From Myxococcota bacterium (GTDB taxonomy: Bacteria; Myxococcota_A; UBA9160; UBA6930), in the NCBI GenBank assembly GCA_965223415.1, contig OZ245002.1, positions 4,480,001 to 4,544,000 of the forward strand: DNA of 64,000 nucleotides, written 5' to 3'. Both the position numbers and the translations under genes were made by a program. The notes under the pieces are model-generated. The model was not told the DNA's origin. It made no database searches and saw nothing but the letters and a program-made list of their open reading frames with translations. Shown in pieces: positions 13,698-61,745 of the stretch. How positions within the stretch are numbered: the stretch's first letter is position 1; every line of letters begins with the position of its first letter.

Positions 13698-14771
13698 TCA
13701 GCCCACGAACGGCGTCTCGACCACCCGAGCCGCCACGGGCTTGCCGCGGATCACGACGTCGAAGGTCTCGCCCGGCTCGCCCAGCGCCGGCGGAACGTAG
13801 CCGAGGCCGATGGATTTTCCGAGCGTCGGCGAGGGTGCGCCGGAGGTCACCTCGCCGACGCTCTCACCGTCGCGGGCGATCGGGTAGCCGGCGCGTGCGA
13901 TTCCGCGGCCCGTCATCTCGAAGCCTGCCAGCCGCCGCGTGTGGCCGGCACGGGCTCGCGCACGAATCGCCTCCGCGCCCAGGAAGCCGCCTTCGTCGAG
14001 CTTGACGAAGCGGGCGAGGCCGGCCTCCAGCGGCGAGGTGCGGTCGTCCAGCTCGTGGCCGTAGAGGGGCAGGGCGGCTTCGAGGCGAAGGGTGTCCCGG
14101 GCGCCAAGGCCGCAGGGGCGCGCGCCCGCCCCGGTGAGGGCCTGCCAGAGGTCCCGGGCGGCGCCGGCCGGCCCGTAGATCTCGAAGCCGTCGGAGCCGG
14201 TGTAGCCGGTGCGCGAGAGCAGCACCTTCGCTCCGGCGAACTCGGCCTCGAGGAAGCGGAAGCGGCGGAGGCCGCCCGGAAGCGGGCCGCACAGGCCGGA
14301 CAGGATGGCCGCGCTCTCCGGGCCCTGCAGGGCGAGGAGCGCGGTCTCCGCGCTGCGGTTGCGCACGCCGGCCGCCTCGGGCGCGTGTCGGACGCACCAG
14401 CGATAGTCCTTCTCGACGTTGGCCGCGTTGACGCAGAGGAAGAGGGCGTCCTCCGCGGTGCGGTAGACGGTGACGTCGTCGACGACGCCGCCCTCCTCGT
14501 TGCAGAGGAGTCCGTAGCGGACCCGGCCGATCCGCAAGCTCGCTACCCTGCAGGTGACCAATCGCTCGACCGCGGACACCGCCTCCGGCCCGCCGAAGTG
14601 GAGCTGGCCCATGTGGGAGATGTCGAACACGCCGGCGCCCTCCCGCACCGCCGCATGCTCCTCCTTGATGGAGGTGTACTGGACGGGCATGTCGAAGCCA
14701 GCGAACGCGACCATGCGGGCACCGAGGGCCACGTGGGTGTCGTGCAGGGGCGTGTGCTGGAGCTGGGTCAA
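13698..14771 (-). CDS. gcvT: Aminomethyltransferase (glycine cleavage T protein)
   Basis: TPLH, FDISHMG, SRTGYTG, GLGARDTLRLEA; TTG start overlaps the folD stop. Confidence 0.95.
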   Translation of the reverse strand: MTQLQHTPLHDTHVALGARMVAFAGFDMPVQYTSIKEEHAAVREGAGVFDISHMGQLHFGGPEAVSAVERLVTCRVASLRIGRVRYGLLCNEEGGVVDDVTVYRTAEDALFLCVNAANVEKDYRWCVRHAPEAAGVRNRSAETALLALQGPESAAILSGLCGPLPGGLRRFRFLEAEFAGAKVLLSRTGYTGSDGFEIYGPAGAARDLWQALTGAGARPCGLGARDTLRLEAALPLYGHELDDRTSPLEAGLARFVKLDEGGFLGAEAIRARARAGHTRRLAGFEMTGRGIARAGYPIARDGESVGEVTSGAPSPTLGKSIGLGYVPPALGEPGETFDVVIRGKPVAARVVETPFVG

Positions 14772-36628: not shown

Positions 36629-37477
36629 TCAGCGGAGCTGGATCTGGGGCGCGGCGACCGTGCCCCCCACGGCGATCTCGGCGCCGCCCCCCGCGTCCAG
36701 GCGGAATCCCTGCTGCTCGAGCATGCCCCGCAGGGAGGGGTCGACGTCCCGCATGAGGACCGTGAGGTCCAGGGCACCGGGTCGGCCCGCGCCGTCGAGG
36801 GCGAGGCTGCCGGCGGCCTCGAAGGACGCCAGGGGGCCTTGCAGGCTGCCCTGGTCCAGCGCGACCTGTCCGTCCTCGCCGAGCCGGAGCTCGGCCAGGA
36901 GGGTGTCGTAAGGAAGGGCGATCGGCAGGCTCGGCAGCGCCAGGCTCCCGTCGTTGCCCTTCACCGAGACCTCCCCGACCCAGAGGTGGCCCTGGCGTCG
37001 CACGTCCGATGCGCCGGAGAGGACGCCGTCCACCGGAAGCCCGTCGGGAGCCAGGGCCTCGGGGAGCGCTGCCGTGTCGATGCCGTCGAAGCGCCCGTCG
37101 AAGCCCGCCTCGCCCACGGGCCACACGGTGCCCACCACGGAGCCGCCGGCCAGCGCCAGCTCCACGCCGAGGGCGGGCTCGCCGGCCAGCCAGGACGTCG
37201 AGAGTGCCGGCCGCACACGCAGCCGCTCGAAGGCCAGGGGGCCGCGGCCCGGCACATGGACCACCAGGCCGTGGAGCACCGCCGCCGGTCCGGTGGCCGA
37301 CCAGCTGCCCTCGAGCCTCGCCAGCTCCATGCGCGTGCCCGTGGCCTGCTCGATCCGGCCGACCAGCCAGGGCGCGAGGCGCTCCCAGGGGAACTGGGCG
37401 ACGGCGAACATCAGGGTGAGGACCAGGCAGCCGGCCGCGATCGCCAGGCGGCGCAGCCAGCCCCCGCGCGGGCTCAC
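36629..37477 (-). CDS. gspN: T2SS protein GspN
   Basis: N-terminal TM helix plus FP motif and a beta-rich body; last gene of the gsp cluster. Confidence 0.75.
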   Translation of the reverse strand: MSPRGGWLRRLAIAAGCLVLTLMFAVAQFPWERLAPWLVGRIEQATGTRMELARLEGSWSATGPAAVLHGLVVHVPGRGPLAFERLRVRPALSTSWLAGEPALGVELALAGGSVVGTVWPVGEAGFDGRFDGIDTAALPEALAPDGLPVDGVLSGASDVRRQGHLWVGEVSVKGNDGSLALPSLPIALPYDTLLAELRLGEDGQVALDQGSLQGPLASFEAAGSLALDGAGRPGALDLTVLMRDVDPSLRGMLEQQGFRLDAGGGAEIAVGGTVAAPQIQLR

Positions 37478-38028
37478 GACTCGATCGACTCGAAGGACGA
37501 GACCGTGAAGGTGACGTCCAGGAGCTCCGGCTTGTCGGCGCGGGTGCGAATGCGCAGGGTCTTGATGGAGAGCAGCTGGGCCGCCGACTCGATGCGGTGG
37601 AGGTAGTTCACGACCTGGGCGAGGGAGACGTTCTTCAGCACGACCTCGACCTTGGTCTCCTCGTAGGCATCGCTCGCCGCCGACTTGCGCGGCTCCATGG
37701 AGGCGACCTTGACGGCGCTCTCCCGCGCCAGCTCCTCCAGGGCGGTGAAGATCTCGCCGCGCGGCCCGGTGGTGATGCGGTCCCGCACCTGGCGCACCGG
37801 CGCCTCGATGCGGTCGTACTTGGCGCGCAAGGCGCGCACGGCCAGGAGCTGCTCCTCGGCCACCACGGCCCGGCGCCGGGCGTCGTCGGCCCAGCCGAGA
37901 GCCGGTGCGATCGCCAACAGGTAGAGGAGCGCCAGCGCCGCCGCGCCACCCGCGCCCCCGACCAGGAGCCGCTCCCGGCCCGAGAGCTCGCTCCAGGCGT
38001 CCTTCAACCGGTTCCACCAGGCCGTCAC
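37474..38028 (-). CDS. gspM: T2SS protein GspM
   Basis: LSGRERLL, TM helix and a ferredoxin-like C-terminus. Confidence 0.8.
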   Translation of the reverse strand: MTAWWNRLKDAWSELSGRERLLVGGAGGAAALALLYLLAIAPALGWADDARRRAVVAEEQLLAVRALRAKYDRIEAPVRQVRDRITTGPRGEIFTALEELARESAVKVASMEPRKSAASDAYEETKVEVVLKNVSLAQVVNYLHRIESAAQLLSIKTLRIRTRADKPELLDVTFTVSSFESIES

Positions 38029-39590
38029 GGGGCCGCCTCCGGGGGCGCCAGGGAGATGCGCACGCTGAAGTTCGTGCCGCCCCTGCGTGTGTCGGTGGAG
38101 GCGTCGCCTACGGTGAGCTCGCGGAACAGAGCGGATTCGGTGAGCGCCTTCTCCAGCCGGTCCACGCCGCCGTACTCCGGGAGGTGTCCCTTGATCTGGA
38201 TCACCTGGCGGTCGATCGAGAGCTCCTCGAACACCACGCCCAGGTCCGGGGGCACGCGGCGGGAGAGCTCGGTCAGGATGTCGAGGGCGGAGAGATGGCC
38301 GCCGAAGACGCCGAGGGTGTCGGCTTCCTTCTCCACCTCGCGCAGGGCGCCTTGCAGGGCGGCCACCGGGTTGGAGGGGACGGCCCCGGGAAAGGCCTGG
38401 CTGTAGAGCTGCTGGGCCTCTGCCTCGGCACGCTGGGCGCGGCGTTCCTGGAGGAAGGCGTCGGTGCCGAGGGAGGCGCAGGCCAGGAGCAGGGCCAGGC
38501 CCCCGAGCAGCGCCGTGGGGCGCATCTCGCGGCTCATCTTGCGCAGGTCGACGCGCCGGGCGAACTCGTCCTTGCGGAAGTTCATCCGCGAGACGGCCTG
38601 GGCGCTGCCGCGCAGCGCCAGGGCGATGGCCGGGCCGAAGACCACTGGGTCGCCGCCGGCGAGGAGCGACGCACCCATCTCGCCCTTCGGCAGCGGCAGC
38701 CGGACGGTCTGCACCGAGGTGCGCTCGGAGAGGAAGCGGTCGAGCTCGTGGAGCCGGGCCGAGCCGCCCATCAGCACGATCTGGGGCGGGGACGGCGCCT
38801 CGCCGCCCTGCTCGAGCATCTCCTCCACCGAGCCCAGGGTGCGCAGCATCTCCCGGGCCAGACGGTCGATCACCTCGACGGCGCCGGGGCACTCGGCACG
38901 GCCGGCGCCGCCGAAGATGCCCTGCTCGATCTTGAGGCGCTCCGCCTCCAGATCGCCCAGGCCCCGATCTTTGGCGACGGCCCGGGTGATCGCCTCGCCG
39001 CCGACGGGCAGCGTGCGCGCGGCCACCGGGTGGCCGTCCAGGCACAGGCAGAGGGTCGTCTTGCGGTGACCGAGGTCGACCAGCAGGCGCGGTCCGGGCA
39101 GCTCGAAGGCGCTGGCCAGATTGGCGAGCACCAGGCCCTCGGCCTCGACGACGCGCACCTCGACGCCGGCCTCGTGCAGCATCTCGAGCAGCAGCGTCAC
39201 CTCGCTGCGGGGCGCCAGGGTGGCCGCCACCTCCGCGCGCTCCCTGCGCTCGGCCACCACCTCCCAGTCGACCACGAACTCGTCCAGGTCGAAGGGCACC
39301 TGGGCCTCCAGCTCGAAGGGCACGGCCGGGCCGATCTTGCGCTTGTCGCGGAAGGGGAAGGTGAGGCGCCGGCTGGAGACCCGGTCGCCGGCCAGGGCCA
39401 CCACCGCGCCGGTCTCCGGCAGGTCGTGGAGCTGCAGGAACTCGCGAATCTCGACGGCGAGAGACGGCGACGGATCGTCCAGGGGCAGCGTGCGCAGCTG
39501 CACGACCTCGAGATCGCGGAGCGTCTGGCGCAGCTCCACGGCCTTGATCGCGTGGCTTCCCAGGTCGAGCCCCAGGATGCGCCTGGCCAT
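38025..39590 (-). CDS. gspL: T2SS protein GspL (PilM/PilN-like fusion)
   Basis: ILGLDLGSHAIK and DLGH actin-like motifs, NFRK, TM helix and PilN-like tail. Confidence 0.83.
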   Translation of the reverse strand: MARRILGLDLGSHAIKAVELRQTLRDLEVVQLRTLPLDDPSPSLAVEIREFLQLHDLPETGAVVALAGDRVSSRRLTFPFRDKRKIGPAVPFELEAQVPFDLDEFVVDWEVVAERRERAEVAATLAPRSEVTLLLEMLHEAGVEVRVVEAEGLVLANLASAFELPGPRLLVDLGHRKTTLCLCLDGHPVAARTLPVGGEAITRAVAKDRGLGDLEAERLKIEQGIFGGAGRAECPGAVEVIDRLAREMLRTLGSVEEMLEQGGEAPSPPQIVLMGGSARLHELDRFLSERTSVQTVRLPLPKGEMGASLLAGGDPVVFGPAIALALRGSAQAVSRMNFRKDEFARRVDLRKMSREMRPTALLGGLALLLACASLGTDAFLQERRAQRAEAEAQQLYSQAFPGAVPSNPVAALQGALREVEKEADTLGVFGGHLSALDILTELSRRVPPDLGVVFEELSIDRQVIQIKGHLPEYGGVDRLEKALTESALFRELTVGDASTDTRRGGTNFSVRISLAPPEAAP

Positions 39591-39644
39591 GGATCGTCCC
39601 CTTCCATCTTCACCTTCCGCGCGCCCGGCTCCGGCCTCTCCGCG

Positions 39645-40676
39645 TCATCGAACGTCCCAGGCGAGCCAACGGGGCTGGGCCGGCTCGCTGCGGTCCACCC
39701 ACGCCGTCACCGTGCGCTGGATGTCACCGTAGCGGGCGATGGACTCGACGCGAAAGACGTCGGTCTGGAAGGTCGCGGGGGGGAAGACCGTCCCCTCGAC
39801 CGCCTGCTCGAGGGCCGTGCAGCGGGGGTCGGTCCCCTCTTCGCACAGCAGATCGCCGTCCTCCCGCAGCTCCAGGACGTCGCGGACGGTATCGGACACC
39901 GCGAAGCGGTAGTCGTCGCTCGTGCCGTGGAAGAGGAGCGCCAGGATCCAGGGCGGGGCGGTGTTGGGGTTGATGCCGTCGGCAGACGTGAGGGGATGCA
40001 CCGACACGTAGGGGCGAAGGGCCTCCACCAGGCGCGCGTCGAAGTCCTCGACGAGCGCCAGCTCGTCCACGGAGAGGAGCGGGCGGTTCGCCGCCCGGTA
40101 CGGGGGATCCTGCAGCTGGTAGTAGTCGTCCTCGAGGCCGCCGAAGATCCGCACGTCGTCCTCGTCCAGGTAGTCGAGGAGATTTCGGGCCAGCTCCTCG
40201 GCATCGTAGCTCCTCTCTTCGGCGCCCCCCGGAATCTCCTGGATGACCCGGTCGAGGAGCTCGGTCAGGAAGGGCTCCGCCATCTCGTCGCGGACCGCGC
40301 CGTCGGCGACGAGGGCGTTCAGGTTGAGCCGCGAGCCGGCGTCCTCGATGCGCAGCCGCAGCTCGCCGCCGTCGGTCACCCGGAGCGGCGCGGCGGCGAC
40401 CCGGGCCCAGAGCTCGTCGCGGGTCTCGGCCCGCAGCTCGTTCGCGGTCTCGTCCAGGCGATCCTGGATCAGGAGTGCCATGGCCAGGCGCACGCCCCCC
40501 CGGGCCAGGGCCTCGCAGCGGGCGGCGTAGTCCCGGTTGCGGGCGACCATCCCGTCGACGGTGGCCTTGCGCAGGAAGGTCGCGATGCCGGTGACCGCCA
40601 GCAGCACGAAGAACATCACTGCCACGAGCGCCAGGCCGGCGCGCCGCCTGTCGGGAGCGTGGCTCCGCACCGTCAT
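39645..40676 (-). CDS. gspK: T2SS minor pseudopilin GspK
   Basis: G/LALVAV, DAGSRLNLN, LLDYLDED, INPNTAP. Confidence 0.9.
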   Translation of the reverse strand: MTVRSHAPDRRRAGLALVAVMFFVLLAVTGIATFLRKATVDGMVARNRDYAARCEALARGGVRLAMALLIQDRLDETANELRAETRDELWARVAAAPLRVTDGGELRLRIEDAGSRLNLNALVADGAVRDEMAEPFLTELLDRVIQEIPGGAEERSYDAEELARNLLDYLDEDDVRIFGGLEDDYYQLQDPPYRAANRPLLSVDELALVEDFDARLVEALRPYVSVHPLTSADGINPNTAPPWILALLFHGTSDDYRFAVSDTVRDVLELREDGDLLCEEGTDPRCTALEQAVEGTVFPPATFQTDVFRVESIARYGDIQRTVTAWVDRSEPAQPRWLAWDVR

Positions 40677-41635
40677 TCGCAGCCCACCACGACGCTGGCG
40701 TCGATCTCGAGGGTGTCGGCCACGTCCAGGAAGCACTCGTCGGCCACCTGGGCGAAGAGCTCCGGGAAGCCCAGCGGGTCGGCGGCCTCCGCGGCGGCGA
40801 AGACCGGCTCGTTCTGGCCGCGACACTCGGCGACCGTCACGCACTCCTCGTCGGCGTCGTCCTCCGACGCGAGCTCCTCCGGCGAGAGGTCGAGGGGTCG
40901 CACCGGCAGCACGACCCGCCGGATGCTCGGCTCGGGCTCGTCGCCAAAGCCGGGCTCCGGGGCGTCCGGACCCTGCAGGGCCAGGCGCAGCTCGACCTGC
41001 ACGGGCAGCTCCCCCGCCCGCTCCAGGCCGATGGCCGAGTCCCAGCGATCGGTCCAGCTGCCCTCCTCGTCCTGGAGCCGCACCCCGAAGGAGGCCACGT
41101 TCTCGGCCAGGACCTGGACGCCCGGGTCGCCCCGGCGCGGGAAGCGCTGGTCGAGGCTCTCCGGAAGATGGGCCTCGGACCAGCGCAGGAGCTCGAGGGC
41201 CCGGCCCTCGTCGTCCCGGGCGGTGAAGTAGGCGACCACCGCCAGGTCCGACTCGCGGCGGGTGCTCGAGCGGGGCCGGTGGGCGCGGGTCTGGAACTTC
41301 AGCCGGTCGGCGCCGTCGCCGCCGCGGCTCTCCTCGGCCAGGAAGAACCAGGGGTGGGCCAGTCGCTCCAGCTCCGCCGGCTTCTTCACGAGCACGGTCT
41401 CCTGGAGCTCCCGCGCCAGGCGATCGAGGGTCAGCGCCGCGCGCCGCTCGTTCTCCGTGAGCGCCACGGCGGCGGCGCTCTGGCGGGAGATCTGGAGGTA
41501 GAAGTTGATGGCGAGGGTCATCACGATCACGGTGAAGAGCATCACGAACATCATCTCGATGAGGGTGAAGGCCTCATCGCGGACCCGGCGGCCCCGCCCG
41601 GTGAGAGGGCTCACGCGCGGGGTGAGGGGCGTCAC
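40673..41635 (-). CDS. gspJ: T2SS minor pseudopilin GspJ
   Basis: A/FTLIEMM prepilin motif and W..RW...LP..V. Confidence 0.8.
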   Translation of the reverse strand: MTPLTPRVSPLTGRGRRVRDEAFTLIEMMFVMLFTVIVMTLAINFYLQISRQSAAAVALTENERRAALTLDRLARELQETVLVKKPAELERLAHPWFFLAEESRGGDGADRLKFQTRAHRPRSSTRRESDLAVVAYFTARDDEGRALELLRWSEAHLPESLDQRFPRRGDPGVQVLAENVASFGVRLQDEEGSWTDRWDSAIGLERAGELPVQVELRLALQGPDAPEPGFGDEPEPSIRRVVLPVRPLDLSPEELASEDDADEECVTVAECRGQNEPVFAAAEAADPLGFPELFAQVADECFLDVADTLEIDASVVVGCE

Positions 41636-42195
41636 TCGAGCTCTCCGGCGGGGTCGTCCGGGTCGACATCCGGATCGCCACCGGCCTGGGAGCTCGCGGT
41701 GGGCAGGTCCGCCGCGGCCGTCTGGGCGTCGAAGCCGAAGGTGGTGCGGCGCACCTCCTGGGTGTGGATGCCTTCCTTCCAGGTCACGGCGATCTCGATC
41801 TCGACTACCGGCGGCGTGGCGCCGAGCCCGTCGCCGGCGACCAGGCCCAGGGGAGGCCCCAGGTCCCGCCGATCGCCCAGCTCGAGGCCGAGGGTCGCCG
41901 GGTCGAGGGGGCGGGCTTCGAGCACAATGCCGAACTCCCCCTCGTCGAGGTTCTGCTGGCCGACCTGGGGAACGACGCCGCCCAGGAGCCCGGCCTCCAG
42001 GTCCGCCACGAGGCGGTCCGCCAGCAGCGAGGCGGCCAGGCGCCGGTGGGCGTCTCCCTCGAGCTGCATGCCGTCGACGGCGGCGCGGGTCAGCAGGGTC
42101 ACGACGATCCCGAGGGCGAGCACCGCCACCATCACTTCGAGCAGGGTGAAGCCCGGGTGCCGTACGTGGCCGGTTCTGCGCGCCGCCCTGCCCAT
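41632..42195 (-). CDS. gspI: T2SS minor pseudopilin GspI
   Basis: G/FTLLEVMVA prepilin motif; position in the cluster. Confidence 0.8.
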   Translation of the reverse strand: MGRAARRTGHVRHPGFTLLEVMVAVLALGIVVTLLTRAAVDGMQLEGDAHRRLAASLLADRLVADLEAGLLGGVVPQVGQQNLDEGEFGIVLEARPLDPATLGLELGDRRDLGPPLGLVAGDGLGATPPVVEIEIAVTWKEGIHTQEVRRTTFGFDAQTAAADLPTASSQAGGDPDVDPDDPAGELE

Positions 42196-42199
42196 CGCG

Positions 42200-42793
42200 T
42201 CAGCCGCCGAGCCGAGCGATGCGGATGCGATCGGCCATCGGCGAGAGCGAGAGCACGATTCGGTGGCCGGCCTCGGAGGTGAGCCAGACATCGGTGGCCT
42301 CGGAGCTGCCGTCCGCGGCGAAGGGCAGGGCCACCTGGCCCCGCTCCTCGCGGCCCGCTTCCGTCTCGATCGCTGCGAGCCAGACGCCGGCCGCGGGCGC
42401 ACGGGGGCGACCGGGCGGGCCCGGCGCCGGCAGGTAGAGGGCCTCGTCGCCGCGCGGCGCGGCCAGGGGCAGCTCCGAGAGCGCCGCCCAGCCCTCCACC
42501 GGCTCACCGGTCGCCACTTGCGGCGGGCTCAGGCTCTCCAGCCAGTAGCGCTGCGCGTCGAGGTCCACGACCACCCGCTGGGGCTGGCCGGTCATCACCG
42601 CGCGCTGGCGGCCGAACTCGAGCAGCGCCGCCAGGGATTCCGCTTCCTGGAGCGAGACGCGGCTGCCCCGCAGGCCCAGGTTCGGGATCGCCACGGCGGC
42701 GAGCAGCGCGATGAGCAGCGTCACCGCCACCAGCTCGATCAGCGTGAAGGCCCGCTCCAGGGCGCGGCGATGGCCGGAGCGGCGCGTCCTCAT
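42200..42793 (-). CDS. gspH: T2SS minor pseudopilin GspH
   Basis: A/FTLIELVAV and F..DGS. Confidence 0.8.
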   Translation of the reverse strand: MRTRRSGHRRALERAFTLIELVAVTLLIALLAAVAIPNLGLRGSRVSLQEAESLAALLEFGRQRAVMTGQPQRVVVDLDAQRYWLESLSPPQVATGEPVEGWAALSELPLAAPRGDEALYLPAPGPPGRPRAPAAGVWLAAIETEAGREERGQVALPFAADGSSEATDVWLTSEAGHRIVLSLSPMADRIRIARLGG

Positions 42794-43269
42794 CCGTTCT
42801 GGGACTCCCAGTTGCCGATGTCGGCGTTCGTGTCGCTGCCGCCGGGCTGGTTGTCCGCGCCGTAGGACCAGATGTCGTAGGTCTCCGGGTTGTGGGTCCC
42901 GGGCGCCTCGTACTGGAAGGCCTCGCCCCAGGCGTCCTTGGGCAGCGATTTGCTCGAGAGGTAGCCGCCGGGGCGGTAGTTGCGCGGCTCGGGCCCGGAG
43001 GCCGGGCGGGTCACCAGGGCCGAGAGGCCCTGCTCGCTGCTCGGGAAGCGGCCGTTGTCCATCTGGTAGAAGGCCAGGGCGCCCTCGATCTGCTTGATCT
43101 GGGTTCGGGTCGTCTCCATGCGGGCGACGTTGATGCGGTCGAACACGGCGGTTCCGACCAGGCCCATCAGCAGGGCCATGATCACGACCACCGCCATGAT
43201 CTCGATGAGCGAGAAGCCGCGCCGGCGCCGGGGGCGGGAGCGCTCGTGCGGGCGGAAGGGAGCGGGCAT
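42790..43269 (-). CDS. gspG: T2SS major pseudopilin GspG
   Basis: G/FSLIEIM, YQMDNGRFPSSEQGL, PKDAWG, YGADNQPGG..NADIGNW. Confidence 0.95.
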   Translation of the reverse strand: MPAPFRPHERSRPRRRRGFSLIEIMAVVVIMALLMGLVGTAVFDRINVARMETTRTQIKQIEGALAFYQMDNGRFPSSEQGLSALVTRPASGPEPRNYRPGGYLSSKSLPKDAWGEAFQYEAPGTHNPETYDIWSYGADNQPGGSDTNADIGNWESQNG

Positions 43270-43281
43270 GGGAAGTCTCCT

Positions 43282-44526
43282 CTACTGGATCGAGCTCGTG
43301 AGCTCGAGAAGGGGCATCAGGGTCGAGAGCATGATCACCAGCACGACACCCACCATGATGAGGATCAGGAAGGGCTCGAGCAGCGCGGTGATGCGGGTGA
43401 CCGTGTTCTCCACCTGCTCTTCGTAGGTGTCGGCGACCTTGGCCAGCATGCCCTGGAGGTCGCCGCTGCGTTCGCCCACGTCGACCATGTGGGTGACCAG
43501 CGGTGGGAAGTGGCCACTCGCGCGCAGCGGTGCCGAGATGGAGGCGCCCTCGGTGATCGAGTTGCGCGCCTGCTCCACCGCGTCGCCGATCACCGTGTTG
43601 GCGGCCACGTGGCGCGAGATGTCCAGGGAGCGCACGATCGGGATGCCGCCGGCGAGGAGTGTCGCCAGGGTGCGCGTGAAGCGGGAGATGGCGAGCTGGC
43701 GGAAGATCTTGCCCATCAGCGGGACGCGGAGCAGCAGGCCGTCCCAGACGTGGCGGCCGCGCTCGGTGGCGATGAACGCGCGCAGGCCCGCCACCCCGGC
43801 GAAGAGCGCGAGGCCCACCGCCCACCACCAGGAGCGCAGGAACTCGGACATGTCGATGACCACGCGGGTGTAGATGGGCAGCGGCCGGTCGAGGCTCTCG
43901 AGCAGCTGGGTGATCTGGGGCAGCACGATCGTCACCAGCACCACCACGACCGAGACCGCGACCATCATCATCACCGCGGGATAGAGCAGGATCGAGACGA
44001 CCTTGTTGCGGGTGCGCACCTGCCCCTCGAGGTAGTCGGCCAGGCGGTCGAGGACCGTCTCGAGGGCGCCGCCGGTCTCGCCTGCCCGCACCATGCTCAC
44101 GTAGAGGTTGTTGAAGGGGCCGGCGGAGGCGAGGGCGTCCGCCAGGGTGGCGCCTTCGTTCACCCGATCGCGCACGATGCCGAGCAGGCTCTTCAGCCGG
44201 GCGTTCTCCACCTGCTCGGTGAGGGCGCCCAGGGATTCGACCAGCGGGATGCCGGCGCCGAGCAGGGTCGCGAGCTGGCGGGTGGCGATGGCGAGATCGG
44301 TTCCCGAGACACGGCGGAAGCTGGCATTCGCCCACAGGGCCGAGGCCGTGGGCCGCTCTCCACTGCCGGCCGCGGCCTTGGGGGCCGCGGCGCTCTCGGT
44401 GAGCTCCGTCAGGAAGACGCCGTCGCGCCGCAGCTTCTGGCGGGCGGTCCGGTCGCTGTCCGCGTCGACGAAGCCCTTCGTCGCGCGGCCGCCGTCGGTG
44501 ACGCCCTTGTACGCATAGACCGGCAC
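43282..44526 (-). CDS. gspF: T2SS inner-membrane platform GspF
   Basis: TRQLATLLGAGIPL, GETGGALE, YP, GERSG, LEP. Confidence 0.95.
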   Translation of the reverse strand: MPVYAYKGVTDGGRATKGFVDADSDRTARQKLRRDGVFLTELTESAAAPKAAAGSGERPTASALWANASFRRVSGTDLAIATRQLATLLGAGIPLVESLGALTEQVENARLKSLLGIVRDRVNEGATLADALASAGPFNNLYVSMVRAGETGGALETVLDRLADYLEGQVRTRNKVVSILLYPAVMMMVAVSVVVVLVTIVLPQITQLLESLDRPLPIYTRVVIDMSEFLRSWWWAVGLALFAGVAGLRAFIATERGRHVWDGLLLRVPLMGKIFRQLAISRFTRTLATLLAGGIPIVRSLDISRHVAANTVIGDAVEQARNSITEGASISAPLRASGHFPPLVTHMVDVGERSGDLQGMLAKVADTYEEQVENTVTRITALLEPFLILIMVGVVLVIMLSTLMPLLELTSSIQ

Positions 44527-44572
44527 GCCGCTGGCCTCCCACTGGCTGGAGGGGGTGGTGTTGGAGGCGGCC

Positions 44573-46306
44573 TCAGGCCGCCGCCATCCCCTCCTCTTCC
44601 TCCGTGGCGCGCACCACCTCCTCGAGGGAGGTCACTCCCGCGAGCACCTTGCGCGCCCCGTCCATGCGCAGGGTCTGCATGCCCCCCTGCGCGGCCAGGC
44701 GCTTGATGGCCTTGGCGTCGACGTTCTGGGTCACGAGGTTGCGGATGGGGTCGTCCACGATCATCAGCTCGAAGATGCCGACCCGGCCCGCGTAGCCGGA
44801 GTCGTGGCACTGAGCGCAGCCGCCCGCGCGGTAGATCTCGACCGGTGCGTTCGCCTTGATGCCCACCTCCGCGAGCTCCTCGGGGGTGGGCTCGTAGGCC
44901 TGGCGGCAGTGCCGGCACAGCACGCGGACGAGACGCTGGGCGAGGACGGCGGAGAGGGACGAGGCCACGAGGTAGGCCTCGACGCCCATGTCGACGAGCC
45001 GGGTGATGGCGCTCGGCGCGTCGTTGGTGTGGAGGGTCGAGAAGACCAGGTGGCCGGTGAGCGAGGCCTGGATGGCGATCTCGGCGGTCTCGAGATCGCG
45101 GATCTCGCCGACCAGCACGATGTTCGGGTCCTGGCGCAGCACGGTGCGCAGGGCGCTGGCGAAGGTGAGGCCGATCTTCGGGCTCACCTCGATCTGGCTC
45201 ACGCCCGGCAGCTGGATCTCCACCGGGTCGTCGATGGTGATGATGTTGGACTCGGCGCTGTTCACCCGGGCCAGGGCGCCGTACAGGGTGGTCGTCTTGC
45301 CGCTGCCGGTCGGGCCGGTGACGAGGATGATCCCGTTGGGCCGCCGGATGAGGCGGTTCCAGATCTCGAGCTGCGCCTCGCCGAAGCCCAGGGCCTCGAG
45401 GTTGAGCATGTCGGAGGTGCGCGGCAGCAGCCGCAGCACCAGCCGCTCGCCGTGGGTGATCGGCACGGTCGAGAGCCGCACGTCGTAGTCGCGGCCGGCG
45501 ATCTTGAGGCGGATGCGGCCGTCCTGGGGCAGCCGCTTCTCGGCGATGTCGAGGCCGCCCATGATCTTGATGCGCGATACCACCGAGGGGAGCAGGGCCT
45601 TCGGCAGCGGGCTCACCGGCTCGTAGAGCACGTTGTCCACCCGGAACCGGACCCGGATCTCCTTCTCGTGGGGCTCGATGTGGATGTCGCTGGCGCGCTC
45701 CTTCACCGCCTGCTGCATCAGCGAGTCGACCAAGCGGATGATCGGCGCCTCGTCGTCGGAGTCGAGCAGGTCTTCCGGCTCCGCCGCGAGCTCGCTGGCC
45801 ACCGAGGCGAAATCGTCGGCGGCGTCCTCGAGGATCGCGTCGAGGGAGCCGGCGCCGCCGCGGTCGTAGACCTGGTTGATCGCGGTCATCACCGCGCGCT
45901 GGCCGACCAGCTCCGTCTCGATGGCAGCGCCGTCGAAGAGCAGCCGCAGGTCGTCGAGGCAGGCGGTGTCGTAGGGGTCCGACATGGCGACCCGCACCGA
46001 GCCGTCGTCGGCCCGGCCGATCGGCAGGAGGCCGTGGGCCTTGGCGAAGGAGATCGGCAGCTTCTCGACCAGGCCCTCGTCCACGTCGTCGGCGCTGATC
46101 GAGGGCCGCACCGGCAGGCCGAGCTGGGTGCCGATCGCCCCCAGCAGCTGATCCTCGCTGAGGAAGCCCAGCTCGAGCAGGTGCTCCGTGAGCTTGCCGC
46201 CCTCGTCCTGCTGGCGGCGCACCGCCTCCTCGAGCTGCTGGAGGGTGAGCGGGGTGGTCCGCAGCAGGACCTCCCGCAGCCCGAGGCGCTCGTCGATCGG
46301 ATTCAC
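44573..46306 (-). CDS. gspE: T2SS ATPase GspE
   Basis: ASDIHIEP, GPTGSGKTT, LRQDP, GEIRD, STLHTN, CxxC motifs. GTG 46306 chosen because of the GTGA overlap; alternative start at 46333. Confidence 0.95.
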   Translation of the reverse strand: MNPIDERLGLREVLLRTTPLTLQQLEEAVRRQQDEGGKLTEHLLELGFLSEDQLLGAIGTQLGLPVRPSISADDVDEGLVEKLPISFAKAHGLLPIGRADDGSVRVAMSDPYDTACLDDLRLLFDGAAIETELVGQRAVMTAINQVYDRGGAGSLDAILEDAADDFASVASELAAEPEDLLDSDDEAPIIRLVDSLMQQAVKERASDIHIEPHEKEIRVRFRVDNVLYEPVSPLPKALLPSVVSRIKIMGGLDIAEKRLPQDGRIRLKIAGRDYDVRLSTVPITHGERLVLRLLPRTSDMLNLEALGFGEAQLEIWNRLIRRPNGIILVTGPTGSGKTTTLYGALARVNSAESNIITIDDPVEIQLPGVSQIEVSPKIGLTFASALRTVLRQDPNIVLVGEIRDLETAEIAIQASLTGHLVFSTLHTNDAPSAITRLVDMGVEAYLVASSLSAVLAQRLVRVLCRHCRQAYEPTPEELAEVGIKANAPVEIYRAGGCAQCHDSGYAGRVGIFELMIVDDPIRNLVTQNVDAKAIKRLAAQGGMQTLRMDGARKVLAGVTSLEEVVRATEEEEGMAAA

Positions 46307-46967
46307 GCGGGCTTCTCCACGGTCGTTCGACACCGCCGGCTCACTCTCCGTTCTCCACGATCGTTCGAACTCCGCCGGTCACTCTCCGTTCTCCACGATC
46401 GTTCGAACTCCGCCGGTCACTCTCCGTTCTCCACGATCGTTCGAACTCCGCCGGTCACTCTCCGTTCTCCACGATCGTTCGAACTCCGCCGGTCACTCTC
46501 CGTTCTCCACGATCGTTCGAACTCCGCCGGTCACTCTCCGTTCTCCACGATCGTTCGAACTCCGCCGGTCACTCTCCGTTCTCCACGATCGTTCGAACTC
46601 CGCCGGTCACTCTCCGTTCTCCACGATCGTTCGAACTCCGCCGGTCACTCTCCGTTCTCCACGATCGTTCGAACTCCGCCGGTCACTCTCCGTTCTCCAC
46701 GATCGTTCGAACTCCGCCGGTCACTCTCCGTTCTCCACGATCGTTCGAACTCCGCCGGTCACTCTCCGTTCTCCACGATCGTTCGAACTCCGCCGGTCAC
46801 TCTCCGTTCTCCACGATCGTTCGAACTCCGCCGGTCACTCTCCGTTCTCCACGATCGTTCGAACTCCGCCGGTCACTCTCCGTTCTCCACGATCGTTCGA
46901 ACTCCGCCGGTCACTCTCCGTTCTCCACGATCGTTCGAACTCCGCCGGTCACTCTCCGTTCTCCACG
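46303..46967. repeat. 38-bp tandem array (16 perfect units plus partial and diverged units), no spacers
   Basis: actctccgttctccacgatcgttcgaactccgccggtc starts at 46343, 46381 ... 46913, with a partial copy at 46951. Confidence 0.97.
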
Positions 46968-49609
46968 GTGACGACCGGCGACATCTCGAAGCTCTGGCGC
47001 ATCACCTCCGCCGCCTCCTCGGCCTCCCCCAACTCGCCGAAGGGGCCGATCCGGATCTCGTAGAGCACGGTGCCGGAGCGGTCCTCGGTGACGAGGGCGC
47101 CGTCGTAGCCCGCGTCGATGAGCTGCTGGAGGGCGGCGGCGGCGGCACCTTCGTCGCCGAAGGTGGCGGCCAGCACCCCGTAGCGCTTGCCCCCGTCGAC
47201 CTGGGCCTGGGCGGCGGCCTGCTGGCGGGCCTCGCGCTCCCGGCGCTCGATCTCGCGCATCTGGTCCACGGGGTAGCGGTCGCGATGCTCGACGAGGCGC
47301 CCCCGCACCGGGTTCTTGCCCTTGAAGGGCGTCATCGAGATGCCCGCCGCCTCGGCCTCCTCGCGGCGCTCCTTCGCCTGGCGCTTCTCCTTGTCGGTGA
47401 GCCGCAGGGCCTTCTCGCTCGACTCCCAGAACTCCTCGCGCTTGCGGATCGTCTCGGTGGCGAGCTCGGCCTCGTTGCGGACGATGTGGGGCGTCAGGAA
47501 GACGAGCAGGTTCACCTTGCGCACGTCCTCGTCGGTGGTCTTGAACAGCCAGCCCAGGATCGGGATGTCGCCGAGCCAGGGCACCTTGGTCTCGATGTCG
47601 CCCTGGTTCTCGTCGATCAGCCCGCCGATCACGACCGTCTCGCCGTCGCCGACCACCACCACGTTCTCGATCTTCCGGTTCGAGAGCGCCACGCCGACCT
47701 CTTCCGCGGAGCCGGTCTGGGCGGTGAGGCCCGCGTTGATGTCCGTGATCTCCTGGAAGATCTTGAGGCGCAGGCTCTCGCCTTCGGAGATCTGGGGCGT
47801 CACCCGCAGGGTGATGCCGATGTCCTGGCGCTCGATGTTCTGGCTCGTGGCGAGGCCGCCGGTGCTCTGGCCCGCCGCCGACTCCACGCGACTGGTGACG
47901 ATCGGGATGTTGTTGCCGACCTTGATCTCCGCCTCCTCGTTGTCGAGGGTGAGCACGTGGGGGGCGGAGAGGATGTTCGTGCTGGTGAGGGAGGCGCTGG
48001 CGCGGATGATGCCCTGGATGAGGGAGCCGCTGAAGAGAGGATTGCCAAAGCCGTCTGTGGCCTGCTCGAGGGCGCCGGTCGCCAGGCCGGTCATCGGATC
48101 GAGGGCCGGCACCATGACCTGTGACACCGTGCTCCGGGTGGCTGCGGCAAAGAGGCTGCTCAGAATCGAGTTGCCCAGGGTTCCAGCGCCGGTATCCGTT
48201 GTGCCGCCGTTCCCGTCCGTCGTCGACGAACCGAAGACGTTCGGAACCGCTCCGCTATCCGTGACTGAACCCAGCGCATAGCTCGTGTTGCCCCGGAAGA
48301 TCCGACCGAAGCCGTTGAAGCCGAGGTCCCGCGCGTCGGTGACATCGACCTCCATGATCAGCGCCTCGACCAGCACCTGGGGCCGGGCGATGTCGAGCTG
48401 GGCGATCACCTGGGCGAGGGTGTCGTAGCCCTCCCGGGTCGCCTGGATGACGAGCGAGTTGGTCGGCGCGTCCGCCGTCACGGTGACGCCGTCGGCCAGC
48501 TCGGTGATGGCGGCCCGCAGGGCCGGGTTCGCCGCCACGCCGCCCACCGCCGCGGCGCCGCCCGGCGAGGCCGGCGGCTGGCCGCCGATCAGGGTGGAGA
48601 GGGTGGTCGCCAGCTCCTCGGCGTCCGCGTGCCTCAGGTAGTAGACGTGGATGCGCCCGCCGCCGGTCACCGGCACGTCGAGGCGCTGGATCACCTCGCG
48701 GATCTCCGCCACCCGCTGGCGGGAGGCGAGGACGATCAGCGAGTTCGTGCGCTCGTCGGTGATCAGCCGGACCCGACCCTTGGGGGCGCCGACGTTGGCG
48801 GCCGCCTGGACGGCCTGGGGAGTGCGCCGGGCGCGGGCCCGGGCCACGGGCTGGCCGGTAGCGCTGGTCACCTCGGCTTCGAAGATCTCGGAGAGCTGGG
48901 CCGCGAGGGTGGTCGCGTCCGCGTGCCGCACCTGGATGACCGTCAGCTCCTCCTTGTAGGTCTCCACGTCGATCGACTGGAGGATGGAGAGGATGCGCCG
49001 GATGTTGGAGGCCGAGTCCGTGAGGATCACCGTGTTGGTGGGCGGGTAGGCCACCATCGAGGCGTCCTTCGAGACCAGCGGCTTCACCGTGTTGGTGATG
49101 GCCTCGGCGTCGATGAAGCGAAGGGGGATGAGCCGCGTGATGAAGCGGTCGCTCTTCGGCGTGGCCGCGCGACCGCGAACGGTCTCGACGTTGCTCTCCT
49201 TGGCCTCGCGGATCGGAATCACCTTGATCGCGCCGCCCGGCGTCTCCACCGTGGTGAAGCCCTTCACCTGGAGGACGGACTCGAAAACCGCGTAGGCCTC
49301 CTCGCGGGTGATCTTGGTGGGCGAGACGATCGTGACGCGCCCGCGCACCCGATCGTCGTAGATGAAGTTCTTGTTCGTGAGGCGAGCGATGGTGTCGATC
49401 ACGACCGAGAGCTCGACGTCGGTGAAGTCGAGCTGCACGTGGCCGTTGTCGGTGGTGAGGCCGTCTTCCGGCGGGGCCTGGGCGGCGGCACCGCCGGCCA
49501 GGAGGATCAGGAGCAAGGCGACGACGCCACGGTGCAGCAGCGAACGCATCCGCCCGGGGCCTTCCATCTTCGAAACCAGCGGTCGCATCAGCGTGGGACT
49601 CCCCATCAT
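46949..49609 (-). CDS. gspD: T2SS secretin GspD with a C-terminal SPOR-like domain
   Basis: N0-N3 domains, QVLVEALIMEV, SAPHVLTLDNEEA, KVPWLGDIPILG, LLVFLTPHI; C-terminal Y.V..ATF....A...Y.IRIGPF. Start uncertain. Confidence 0.93.
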   Translation of the reverse strand: MMGSPTLMRPLVSKMEGPGRMRSLLHRGVVALLLILLAGGAAAQAPPEDGLTTDNGHVQLDFTDVELSVVIDTIARLTNKNFIYDDRVRGRVTIVSPTKITREEAYAVFESVLQVKGFTTVETPGGAIKVIPIREAKESNVETVRGRAATPKSDRFITRLIPLRFIDAEAITNTVKPLVSKDASMVAYPPTNTVILTDSASNIRRILSILQSIDVETYKEELTVIQVRHADATTLAAQLSEIFEAEVTSATGQPVARARARRTPQAVQAAANVGAPKGRVRLITDERTNSLIVLASRQRVAEIREVIQRLDVPVTGGGRIHVYYLRHADAEELATTLSTLIGGQPPASPGGAAAVGGVAANPALRAAITELADGVTVTADAPTNSLVIQATREGYDTLAQVIAQLDIARPQVLVEALIMEVDVTDARDLGFNGFGRIFRGNTSYALGSVTDSGAVPNVFGSSTTDGNGGTTDTGAGTLGNSILSSLFAAATRSTVSQVMVPALDPMTGLATGALEQATDGFGNPLFSGSLIQGIIRASASLTSTNILSAPHVLTLDNEEAEIKVGNNIPIVTSRVESAAGQSTGGLATSQNIERQDIGITLRVTPQISEGESLRLKIFQEITDINAGLTAQTGSAEEVGVALSNRKIENVVVVGDGETVVIGGLIDENQGDIETKVPWLGDIPILGWLFKTTDEDVRKVNLLVFLTPHIVRNEAELATETIRKREEFWESSEKALRLTDKEKRQAKERREEAEAAGISMTPFKGKNPVRGRLVEHRDRYPVDQMREIERREREARQQAAAQAQVDGGKRYGVLAATFGDEGAAAAALQQLIDAGYDGALVTEDRSGTVLYEIRIGPFGELGEAEEAAEVMRQSFEMSPVVTVENGE

Positions 49610-50490
49610 CGAATCTCGTACTGGAGCTGACGGACCTGCCCGTCGCGTCCCGTGACGGTGACGCTGAATTGCTGAGAGGTCGAGAGCTCGCTCAGCACCT
49701 GTGCACTCTCCTGCTGGCCCGTCACCTGGATTCCGTTGAACTCGGTGATGGTGTCGCCGTCCTGGATGCCGATCTGCTGGAAGAGGCTCCCCGCCTTGAT
49801 CGCGTTCAGCTGCACGCCCACCATCTGTCCGTTCTCATACTTCGGCAGGATGCGGGCCTGAGAGAAGAGGGCGGCGGGATTGTTCGCCACGCTGTTCACG
49901 TCCTGGCGCTCGACGGCGAAGCGGTTCTCGGCCAGCTGCTCGACCTGCGGGTTGCGGGCGGGCCGGGCGCGGGGTCGCGCGCGGGCGGTCCGGCGAGCCG
50001 GGCGCGTCGATTTGCCCCCGTTCTCCTCCTTGAGGGCGAGCTCCTCGCGGCGGGGCCCGTTCTGGAGGACGATGCGGCGGCGCTCGATGCGCAGCACGTC
50101 CGCGCGACCCTTGAGCCGGTCGCCCACCCGCACGACCAGATGGGTGCGGGTCTCCAGGTCCTCGACCGCGGCCCAGGAGAGTGCCGTGTCCTCGTGGGCG
50201 GCGGTGCCGAGGAGCTCCAGCGGGAGCTTCGTCTTGGCGTACTTCTCCTCCTCCGTCGGTGGCGGAGCCGTGGGCGCAAGGGTGGAGGCGTTGAAGGGGT
50301 TGCGGCTGATGATGATCTGGCGCGCGTCCCAGCTCCGGTCCGTCGGAGGGATCGGGATGGGCTGGACGTGGGCGGCGCCGGCCGCGGGCTCCAGCACCGA
50401 GCCGGACACGGCGGCGATCACCCGTGCCGCGAAGAAGCAGCAGGCCGCCACCAGGGCGACGTTGATGCCGAGGATCAGCGCGCGGCTCAC
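49606..50490 (-). CDS. gspC: T2SS protein GspC with PDZ domain
   Basis: TM helix, RNPF, LELLGT, ARILP...G.QL.AIKAGSLFQQIGIQDGD. Confidence 0.9.
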   Translation of the reverse strand: MSRALILGINVALVAACCFFAARVIAAVSGSVLEPAAGAAHVQPIPIPPTDRSWDARQIIISRNPFNASTLAPTAPPPTEEEKYAKTKLPLELLGTAAHEDTALSWAAVEDLETRTHLVVRVGDRLKGRADVLRIERRRIVLQNGPRREELALKEENGGKSTRPARRTARARPRARPARNPQVEQLAENRFAVERQDVNSVANNPAALFSQARILPKYENGQMVGVQLNAIKAGSLFQQIGIQDGDTITEFNGIQVTGQQESAQVLSELSTSQQFSVTVTGRDGQVRQLQYEIR

Positions 50491-60913: not shown

Positions 60914-61686
60914 GCTTTCCTCTCGATCGCTTCTCCCTCGAAGGGAAGGTGGCCGTCGTGACCGGCGCCTCGTCGGGTATGGGCGTGACCTTCGCCCACG
61001 CCGTGTCCGCGGCCGGGGCCCGGGTGGTGATCGCCGCGCGGCGGGCCGACCGCCTGGCGGAGGTGGCCCGCACCATCGAGAAGCACGGCGGCACGGTCCA
61101 GGCCGTCGAGTGCGACGTCGCCCGGGACGAGGACGTGGACCGGCTGGTCGCCGAGACCGAGGCCGCCTTCGGTCCCGCCGACCTGCTCGTCAACAACGCC
61201 GGCTTCACCACCGTGGTGCCGGCGGAGGAGCAGAGCGCCGAGGACTTCCGCGCCCACATGGACGTGAACCTGACCGGCGCCTTCCTGTGCGCCCAGCGTT
61301 TCGGCCGCCGTATGATCGACCGGGACGGCGGGACGATCGTGAACGTCTCCTCGGTGCTGGGCTCGGTGGCCTCCGGCCAGATCAAGCAGGCCGCCTACGC
61401 CGCCTCCAAGGGCGGCCTCACCAACCTCACCCGCGAGCTTGCCGCCCAGTGGGCGCGCAAGGGCGTGCGCGTGAACGCGCTGGCCCCGGGCTGGTTCCCC
61501 ACGGAGATGACCGGCGAGATGTTCGGCGACGAGCGCTCCGAGAGCTGGATGCGCAGTCGCACGCCGATGGGTCGCGGCGGCGAGCTCGACGAGCTGGTGG
61601 GCCCGCTCCTGTTCCTCGCTTCCGACGCCTCCGCCTTCGTCACCGGCCATGTCCTGATGGTCGACGGCGGCTGGACCATCGTGTAG
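60910..61686 (+). CDS. SDR family oxidoreductase
   Basis: TGASSGMG, NNAG, YAASK, VDGG. Confidence 0.93.
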   Translation: MSFPLDRFSLEGKVAVVTGASSGMGVTFAHAVSAAGARVVIAARRADRLAEVARTIEKHGGTVQAVECDVARDEDVDRLVAETEAAFGPADLLVNNAGFTTVVPAEEQSAEDFRAHMDVNLTGAFLCAQRFGRRMIDRDGGTIVNVSSVLGSVASGQIKQAAYAASKGGLTNLTRELAAQWARKGVRVNALAPGWFPTEMTGEMFGDERSESWMRSRTPMGRGGELDELVGPLLFLASDASAFVTGHVLMVDGGWTIV

Positions 61687-61745
61687 CCCCGCGCTCGGCG
61701 GCTGGACCATCGTCTAGCCCGGCGCTCGGCGGCTGGACGATCGTT
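61665..61745 (+). repeat. 31-bp tandem duplication of the SDR 3' end (about 2.6 copies)
   Basis: ggcggctggaccatcgtStagcccSgcgctc twice plus ggcggctggacgatcgt. Confidence 0.8.

Follow-up and report, generated by a model that had tools for sequence, protein, structure and literature searches.

A 17-unit tandem repeat between gspD and gspE of a Myxococcota type II secretion operon that keeps the stop/start overlap of the junction

How can an operon junction at which the stop of one gene is tied to the start of the next take up several hundred nucleotides of repeated DNA, and why would the repeat have the geometry of a translational relay? The question is raised by an operon for a type II secretion system (T2SS) in a window of 64,000 nucleotides, by which is meant the whole stretch analyzed here (Myxococcota bacterium, assembly GCA_965223415.1, contig OZ245002.1, positions 4,480,001 to 4,544,000 of the forward strand). 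In this operon a tandem array of 38-bp units lies between gspD, which encodes the secretin, and gspE, which encodes the ATPase, and each unit contains a small open reading frame (ORF) that ends on the start of the next one. The array is best read as a recent, lineage-specific amplification, a putative variable number tandem repeat (VNTR), of a 38-bp module taken from an older bridging mini-ORF. We consider it moderately probable that the repeat is tolerated because it preserves stop/start coupling and that it was not built for a purpose.

The genes and repeats at and around the junction, in window coordinates and in operon order, are the following.

49606..50490, minus strand: gspC (T2SSC and PDZ domains, Pfam), whose stop overlaps the gspD ATG as ATGA
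46949..49609, minus strand: gspD, secretin (N0, three Secretin_N, Secretin and a C-terminal SPOR domain, Pfam), whose stop lies in GAGTGA
46345..46952, minus strand: 16 identical 38-bp units, with mini-ORFs from 46911-46952 down to 46341-46382 (exact matching and Tandem Repeats Finder, TRF)
46303..46344, minus strand: diverged 17th unit, which carries the GGAG of gspE and is a homologue of the single bridging mini-ORF of sister species (alignment)
44573..46306, minus strand: gspE, ATPase (MshEN and T2SSE domains, Pfam)
37474..44526, minus strand: remainder of the operon, with gspF (43282-44526), gspG (42790-43269), N-methyl pseudopilins, gspJ, gspK, a gspL-like gene and gspM (Pfam)

Between gspD and gspE, TRF finds a single array at window positions 46313-46967 with a period of 38, 17.2 copies and 99% matches. 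By exact matching on the minus strand the units start at 46952, 46914 and so on to 46382, with a constant spacing of 38 nt and zero differences among the 16, and they are followed by one diverged unit. The GTG of each unit opens a 42-nt, 13-codon mini-ORF, GTG ACC GGC GGA GTT CGA ACG ATC GTG GAG AAC GGA GAG TGA (VTGGVRTIVENGE*), whose TGA overlaps the following GTG. The 3′ end of gspD reads ...GTG GAG AAC GGA GAG TGA, and the final G of the GAG codon starts the GTG of the first mini-ORF (46952), which overlaps the gspD stop TGA (46951-46949). With its final 22 nt (46949-46970) gspD supplies the 3′ half of the repeat unit, and the TRF array extends to 46967. At the opposite end, the 17th frame (46344-46303, VSRRCRTTVEKPA*) closes with a TGA that overlaps the gspE GTG at 46306, a start that is backed by an N-terminus, VNPIDERLGL, conserved in genomes of the same genus. 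From gspD to gspE there are 18 co-oriented GTGA junctions in series, each with the −4 nt (NTGA) overlap, and a GGAG lies 8 nt 5′ of every GTG in the array and of the gspE GTG as well. The tail of the 16S rRNA in this genome contains CCUCC. The original prediction, made from the letters of the window, had described 16 identical mini-ORFs and a diverged 17th, linked by GTGA overlaps at a 38-bp period with GGAG 8 nt before each start, and this anatomy is correct to the base.

The chain of mini-ORFs is a genuine feature, with one end fixed to the stop of gspD and the other to the start of gspE. Given a unit that contains GTGA and a period of the form 3n+2 (two more than a multiple of three), a chain follows arithmetically, so not all of it exceeds what chance would give. 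The anchoring of its two ends on two real genes is not automatic. Within the genome the array stands out, its TRF score ranking second of 687 arrays in 5.83 Mb, and it is the largest array with a period that is not a multiple of three. Searching the 5.83-Mb genome with two units as the query confined the unit to one locus, and it does not belong to a dispersed family. Exact matches to the unit numbered zero in genome contigs and zero in metagenome contigs, a search from which records of this genome itself were possibly excluded. The array (46345-46952) also contains 16 of the 48 copies in the genome of the 8-nt palindrome GTTCGAAC.

Identical repeats assemble poorly, and the first alternative to be considered is that the array is an artefact of assembly and that the true locus has 1-2 units. 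A single study, with three samples, provides the four public runs that contain the stretch, and these runs may include the source sample of the assembly. The gspE flank with about ten units was compared with the runs, which exist as contigs too short to reach across the array. In run X1 the contigs made of units had depths of 200.7 and 190 versus 14.5 for the flank, in X2 160.9 and 178.3 versus 16.8, and in X4 31.9 versus 3.8-6.4. By contig depth, units are thus about 5-14 times as abundant as the flank in three runs of two samples, with a ratio of about 10-14 in sample S1 and about 5-8 in S3, although these ratios are noisy, the two runs of one sample giving 13-14 and about 10. In none of the run contigs at the locus is the gspD tail followed immediately by the diverged unit, nor is there any alternative joint, and one contig passes from a unit into the gspD tail exactly as in the assembly, in which the genome is one 5.83-Mb contig. 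A 1-2-unit artefact is therefore very unlikely, with a probability close to negligible. The multi-copy state expected by the original prediction is confirmed, while the exact number is beyond contigs this short: about 17 is the count of the assembly, and depth gives only about 10-14.

The origin of the array becomes apparent from its relatives. A search of 40 related genomes with GspE gave 29 orthologous loci (L010-L038); outside the 29 are same-genus G002, with paralogue-level matches only, and two genomes with truncated matches and no locus. In all 29 loci gspD is directly upstream of gspE, and in none of them is there an array. The gspD stop directly overlaps the gspE start as RTGA (GTGA or ATGA) in 24, including same-genus G001 (...GAGGAGTGAATCCG...), and in one (L022) the two genes overlap by 8 nt. 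One locus (L023, genome G011) has a 2-codon bridge, GTG ACG TGA, the TGA of which overlaps the gspE GTG. The remaining three, all from the same genus (G004, G005 and G003), have a single bridging mini-ORF in spacers of 28, 31 and 28 nt (11, 12 and 11 codons, respectively), which shares an ATGA with the gspD stop where it opens and a TTGA or GTGA with the gspE start where it closes. The comparison of related junctions, proposed as a check on the relay, thus finds a coupled junction as the rule, normally direct and occasionally bridged, and no second array. Two observations on these loci may be added. The bridge of L023 resembles a 5-nt duplication of the GTGA junction, and the last 199 residues of GspD, which include a peptidoglycan-binding SPOR domain at the C-terminus (residues 807-880 of the window protein), match directly 5′ of gspE in 29/29 relatives by tblastn, several of the matches ending early.

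The diverged 17th unit, with a spacer of 34 nt, aligns with the spacers of the sister species (L010-L012). Since the four spacers of 28, 31, 28 and 34 nt are all of the form 3n+1, insertions and deletions came in threes. The repeat unit is composed of the last 22 nt of gspD and the first 16 nt of the spacer. At a distance of 38 nt from each other lie two similar tails, CCGTGGAGAACGGAGAGTGA of gspD and CCGTGGAGAAGCCCGCGTGA of the spacer. Head-to-tail identical copies, their absence from relatives and a unit derived from the flanks are the features of a slippage-type tandem repeat (VNTR or minisatellite). Judged from these alignments, the array arose locally from the junction sequence itself, and the junction went from a direct GTGA overlap through a single bridging mini-ORF to the 17-unit array. 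The amplification is very recent because the 16 copies are identical. The period was inherited from the ancestral bridging ORF (34 + 4 = 38), so its 3n+2 form is not independent evidence that a relay was designed.

If the geometry of this one array was inherited, the question of whether geometry matters must be asked of other arrays in the same genome. Among 63 strong arrays surveyed for RTGA chains, a chain of at least two was found on some strand in 8/12 arrays with a 3n+2 period, the gspD-gspE array included, versus 1/9 with a 3n+1 period. A census was then applied to all 128 non-3n arrays (66 3n+1 and 62 3n+2) with a period no shorter than 12, no fewer than 1.9 copies and matches of 80% or more, under criteria set in advance: a start-like codon had to be duplicated and its last copy had to open an ORF of at least 100 codons with a G+C content of at least 0.85 at third codon positions (GC3) and at most 0.62 at second positions (GC2). 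By this definition a start is duplicated in fourteen of the 128 arrays. A 3n+2 period is found in 13 of these 14, where the background frequency is 62/128 (binomial p = 7e-4). In these 13 cases the frame of the earlier copy stops in an RTGA overlap in seven and in a TGATG-type overlap in three, and of two others, one stops 4 nt past the initial base of the following start copy and one 8 nt before it. In 12/13 the stop and the next start are no more than a few bases apart, and the single case in which it is far off (4845496, plus strand) is probably a spurious call. In the sole start-duplicating array with a 3n+1 period, the stop is 23 nt past the next start. The −4 or −1 overlap is found in 10/13 compared with 30.6% expected (p = 8e-4), the expectation being the frequency of A at +4 or of a 1-nt stop overlap among 2214 starts supported by a Shine-Dalgarno (SD) sequence. 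In-frame (3n) arrays that duplicate an SD-preceded start at the 5′ end of an ORF were not found, under criteria stricter than those for the non-3n arrays, which additionally called for an SD-like motif plus an in-frame stop within 45 nt upstream.

Small start-region duplications of this kind, outside the window and given as positions in the single contig of the genome (G000:C1), are listed here; they have 2-3 copies and periods of 23-38, all 3n+2, and their mini-ORFs end in ATGA, GTGA or TGATG on the next start.

5596730-5596833 (L039), 3939370-3939437 (L040), 3107299-3107399 (L041) and 2732023-2732137 (L042): duplications of a gene start
2151383, 3225731, 3508470, 5195164, 5291135 and 5739257: more duplications of the same type

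Four examples illustrate the pattern. A ribE-like start (MFTGIVE...) is preceded by two TGATG-linked copies of MFTGTGSGGGT* with period 35 (the second example, with its start MTLRVGVLLSG..., being purN-like) and a purN-like one, as given here, by two ATGA-linked copies of MTLHVGAE* with period 23. The other two have period 38: in one an acyl-CoA-dehydrogenase-like start follows two copies of MSLVLQDRREEPS*, and in the other the start of a further gene follows two copies of MTSVSGFAAEDPS*. These arrays and the others in the genome have units that are unrelated to the gspD-gspE unit and are locally derived. Like the gsp array, the ribE-like, purN-like and acyl-CoA-dehydrogenase-like arrays are absent from the orthologous loci of the same genus (5/5, 4/4 and 4/4, respectively), which keep a single TGATG, ATGA or plain start junction. 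Among long non-3n arrays (period of at least 28), periods of 32, 35 and 38 are over-represented, with 25 arrays of 3n+2 against 9 of 3n+1.

Because mutation is blind to the reading frame, the 3n+2 bias points to selection, and a duplicated start seems to be tolerated only if its frame closes at the next start. Two readings of such a filter fit the data. In one, release of the ribosome at the next start would feed reinitiation there; in the other, an early stop would avoid long out-of-frame products and a blocked true start, out-of-frame stops being rare in this genome. In both the small frames must be translated. The 13/14 figure is indirect evidence, of a kind that comes from sequence only, that the tiny frames are translated and that the position of their stop is under selection.

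Some further observations concern repeats of other kinds. A 9-codon upstream ORF (ATGA...ATGA, spacing 26 nt, 3n+2) ends on the acyl-CoA-dehydrogenase-like start in two same-genus genomes (L053 in G004 and L054 in G003), and G005 and G002 of the same genus are without it upstream of this gene. The largest array of the genome (G000:C1 1168531-1174241) has a 288-bp period, 19.8 copies and 94% matches and is presumably part of a gene for a repeat-domain protein, and three additional arrays with a 288-bp period are found elsewhere. Short non-3n arrays with CTAGA/GCTAGAAGCG-like motifs are present at window positions 61665-61744 (genome 4541665-4541744), at genome positions 4550679 and 5743588, and at 14203 and 46238 in the same-family genome G007; these may be duplicated 3′ ends of genes (reverse strand ...TTCTAG).

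How, then, might the array at gspD-gspE have come about and persisted? The explanation that we favor, with the moderate confidence expressed above, starts from the junction usual in this bacterial order, a GTGA in which the gspD stop and the gspE start overlap. The common ancestor of this species and its three sister species gained a spacer of about 30 nt that constituted one mini-ORF with RTGA at both ends. Slippage or unequal exchange may then have amplified the last 22 nt of gspD together with the first 16 nt of the spacer, a process for which two similar tails, CCGTGGAGAA...GTGA, at a distance of 38 nt may have been the seed. Every unit so produced rebuilds a self-sufficient module that consists of GGAG, 8 nt, a GTG with its 13 codons, and a TGA that falls on the GTG after it. 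Ribosomes at the end of gspD, or those that load at any GGAG, would translate 13 codons and be released on the following start, and the final release would occur on the gspE GTG, which retains its own GGAG. The layout would persist since no long out-of-frame translation runs across the gspE start and a terminating ribosome is kept there, and the key factors are probably this last step and the lack of run-on frames. It is the junction types of the relatives together with the 3n+2 census that argue for a geometry that is seen by ribosomes.

The original prediction went further and proposed that a ribosome finishing gspD could be passed through 17 reinitiation steps to gspE. The coupled chain it was founded on is real and anchored, but a 17-step hand-over of a single ribosome is unlikely, as an efficiency of 0.9 per step would deliver a fraction of 0.17 to gspE and one of 0.5 only 8e-6. 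With a GGAG in each unit, the loading of fresh ribosomes is more likely than a 17-fold hand-over.

Several points weigh against tolerance through preserved coupling. The 16 units are identical, which leaves no time for selection to have acted on the array itself, the geometry of which was inherited by construction, and the gspE GTG, having its own GGAG at 8 nt, may need no hand-over. The copy number implied by depth falls short of 16-17. The same-genus genomes G001-G005 are fragmented assemblies. The census represents one genome, as its replication in the well-assembled G007 was infeasible, 400 kb of that genome (C1:1-400000) yielding 2 non-3n arrays compared with about 22 per Mb in G000 (128 in 5.83 Mb). 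Its starts are predicted from ORF length and GC3, and the census script missed the gsp array itself owing to the diverged last unit.

The next alternative is that the array is a neutral passenger, a product of slippage without effect on translation, where gspE uses its own GGAG and GTG and the chain is a by-product. The arithmetic origin of the chain, seen again in the 8/12 arrays of 3n+2 period that form chains on some strand, the GGAG 8 nt upstream of the gspE GTG, and the identity of the copies, which makes the expansion very recent, are all compatible with it. A passenger without effect, however, would not account for a 3n+2 period in 13/14 start-duplicating arrays nor for the −4 or −1 overlap in 10/13 of them where about 31% is expected, and at this locus the sister spacers differ by multiples of three with RTGA retained at both ends and the coupling layout is kept in 29/29 relatives. 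We regard the passenger as unlikely but credible.

A reading more ambitious than preserved coupling combines a strict filter on start duplications with an array that acts as an 18-junction reinitiation ladder, whose copy number heritably governs the number of ribosomes arriving at gspE and the T2SS genes downstream of it, relative to the secretin. It is quite unlikely; were it true, the array would be a copy-number dial on the stoichiometry of a secretion machine and a natural ruler of reinitiation efficiency per step.

An adaptive rheostat, in which copy number has been selected to set the output of GspE and the downstream genes against that of the secretin through fractional reinitiation at each step, is decidedly improbable. 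A multi-step chain would attenuate geometrically, and the difference in depth ratio between samples S1 and S3 might reflect variation in copy number. Two runs of one sample already differ, though, and independent loading of ribosomes at each unit would cancel the attenuation. Furthermore, the array is found in 0/29 relatives and copy number is linked to no phenotype. The suggestion that copy number tunes secretin versus ATPase and pseudopilin output accordingly finds no support.

There is a very small chance that the array functions at the level of DNA or transcript, as an internal promoter, a platform for protein binding or a structured RNA. Promoter activity is reported for the repeat-containing senX3-regX3 spacer of mycobacteria (PMC4213456), and the palindromes GTTCGAAC and CGATCG are present in each unit. 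Against this, TTCGAA and CGATCG are common in the genome. A simple scan of 45800-47500 gave no sigma-70-like promoter, by a consensus that may not fit this host, and no terminator. In the same interval no Rfam family reaches its threshold, the highest scores being those of Clostridiales-1 (26.7 bits versus 48) and mir-492 (18 versus 76), which are taken as chance. The array folds hardly better than its shuffles (minimum free energy −269.1 versus −256.3 +/- 5.7, z = −2.24), with a centroid that is open over the array. Restriction or methylation was also considered as a role for TTCGAA and CGATCG; the sole palindrome concentrated in the array is GTTCGAAC.

Other candidate functions were rejected. 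The release of many copies of a small peptide is unsupported: the bridging peptides of the sister species have no more than 1-6 of 11-13 residues in common, and the GC3 of the mini-ORF is low, at 0.64 versus 0.94 for gspD and 0.98 for gspE. A leader-peptide attenuator or regulatory upstream ORF does not fit a region with zero terminator-like sites, no privileged fold and a peptide that is not conserved. C-poor, G-rich RNA is the opposite of a Rho loading (rut) site, and the mRNA strand of the array, with 42% G and 19% C, is a poor substrate for Rho, so that shielding from Rho, another of the functions first proposed, is unsupported as well. The antisense ORFs at 46188-47063 and 44555-48124 on the plus strand have GC3 values of 0.71 and 0.68, compared with 0.94-0.98 for the gsp genes, and were treated as spurious; a search of the former alone gave no Pfam family at E <= 0.1.

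What the locus demonstrates is that 650 nt of extra DNA can be taken into a junction that depends on a stop/start overlap without loss of the overlap. Such a relay layout is genuine and is probably a condition on which the repeat is tolerated; it is inherited and has precedent, and there is no evidence of tuning. What distinguishes the case is the location in a T2SS operon and a within-genome census that offers sequence-level evidence of a selective filter. If the filter proves true across genomes, it would provide a rule for which repeats are tolerated at gene junctions and a locally generated counterpart to the MIRUs (interspersed repetitive units) of mycobacteria, and the 0, 1 and 17 units of the sister species would be natural constructs for measuring the efficiency of reinitiation.

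The precedents are of three kinds, and the claim that no element like this has been described is wrong, although a literature search of titles and abstract openings found no prior description in T2SS operons or of coupling through tandem repeats. The first is the short upstream ORF that merely delivers ribosomes to the gene downstream, of which Shell et al. in 2015, as cited in PMC12548453, and bicistronic-design expression cassettes are the reported examples. Like these, the gsp mini-ORF is short, has no conserved product and ends on the start of a real gene, but it is present in many tandem copies and in addition has its own start on the stop of the upstream gene.

The second is ordinary translational coupling, of which NTGA (−4 nt) is the commonest layout according to a 2025 review (PMC12548453). 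Every junction of the gsp chain is a GTGA, a single RTGA is found in 24/29 relatives, and gspC and gspD are themselves joined by ATGA. In contrast to the one overlap of ordinary coupling, the array has eighteen in series with 17 non-conserved 13-codon frames.

The third is the MIRU-VNTR of the Mycobacterium tuberculosis complex, such as the intercistronic array of senX3-regX3, reportedly the subject of Supply et al. in 1997. Mycobacteria are not expected to carry a gspC-M type II secretion operon, and the present host, with a full gspC-M T2SS operon and its secretin, is no Mycobacterium. MIRUs are described as units of 40-100 bp that carry ORFs and overlap the adjacent genes of polycistrons (PMC3184786), coupled at −4 nt in a layout that lets the repeat sit with little effect on the downstream gene (PMC12548453). 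The senX3-regX3 spacer has three 77-bp units, or two of 77 bp and one of 53 bp (PMC4213456), and by our own arithmetic both lengths are of the form 3n+2, like the 38 bp here. Both systems consist of tandem units within an operon between co-oriented genes, with a small ORF in each unit and ends that overlap the flanking stop and start at −4 nt. MIRUs, on the other hand, are dispersed over about 40-50 loci and apparently mobile, whereas the gsp unit is restricted to a single locus and locally built; it is also shorter (38 bp), is present in 17 copies and resides in a diderm host with a T2SS. By analogy, the gspD-gspE array would thus work like a MIRU-VNTR while standing outside that family.

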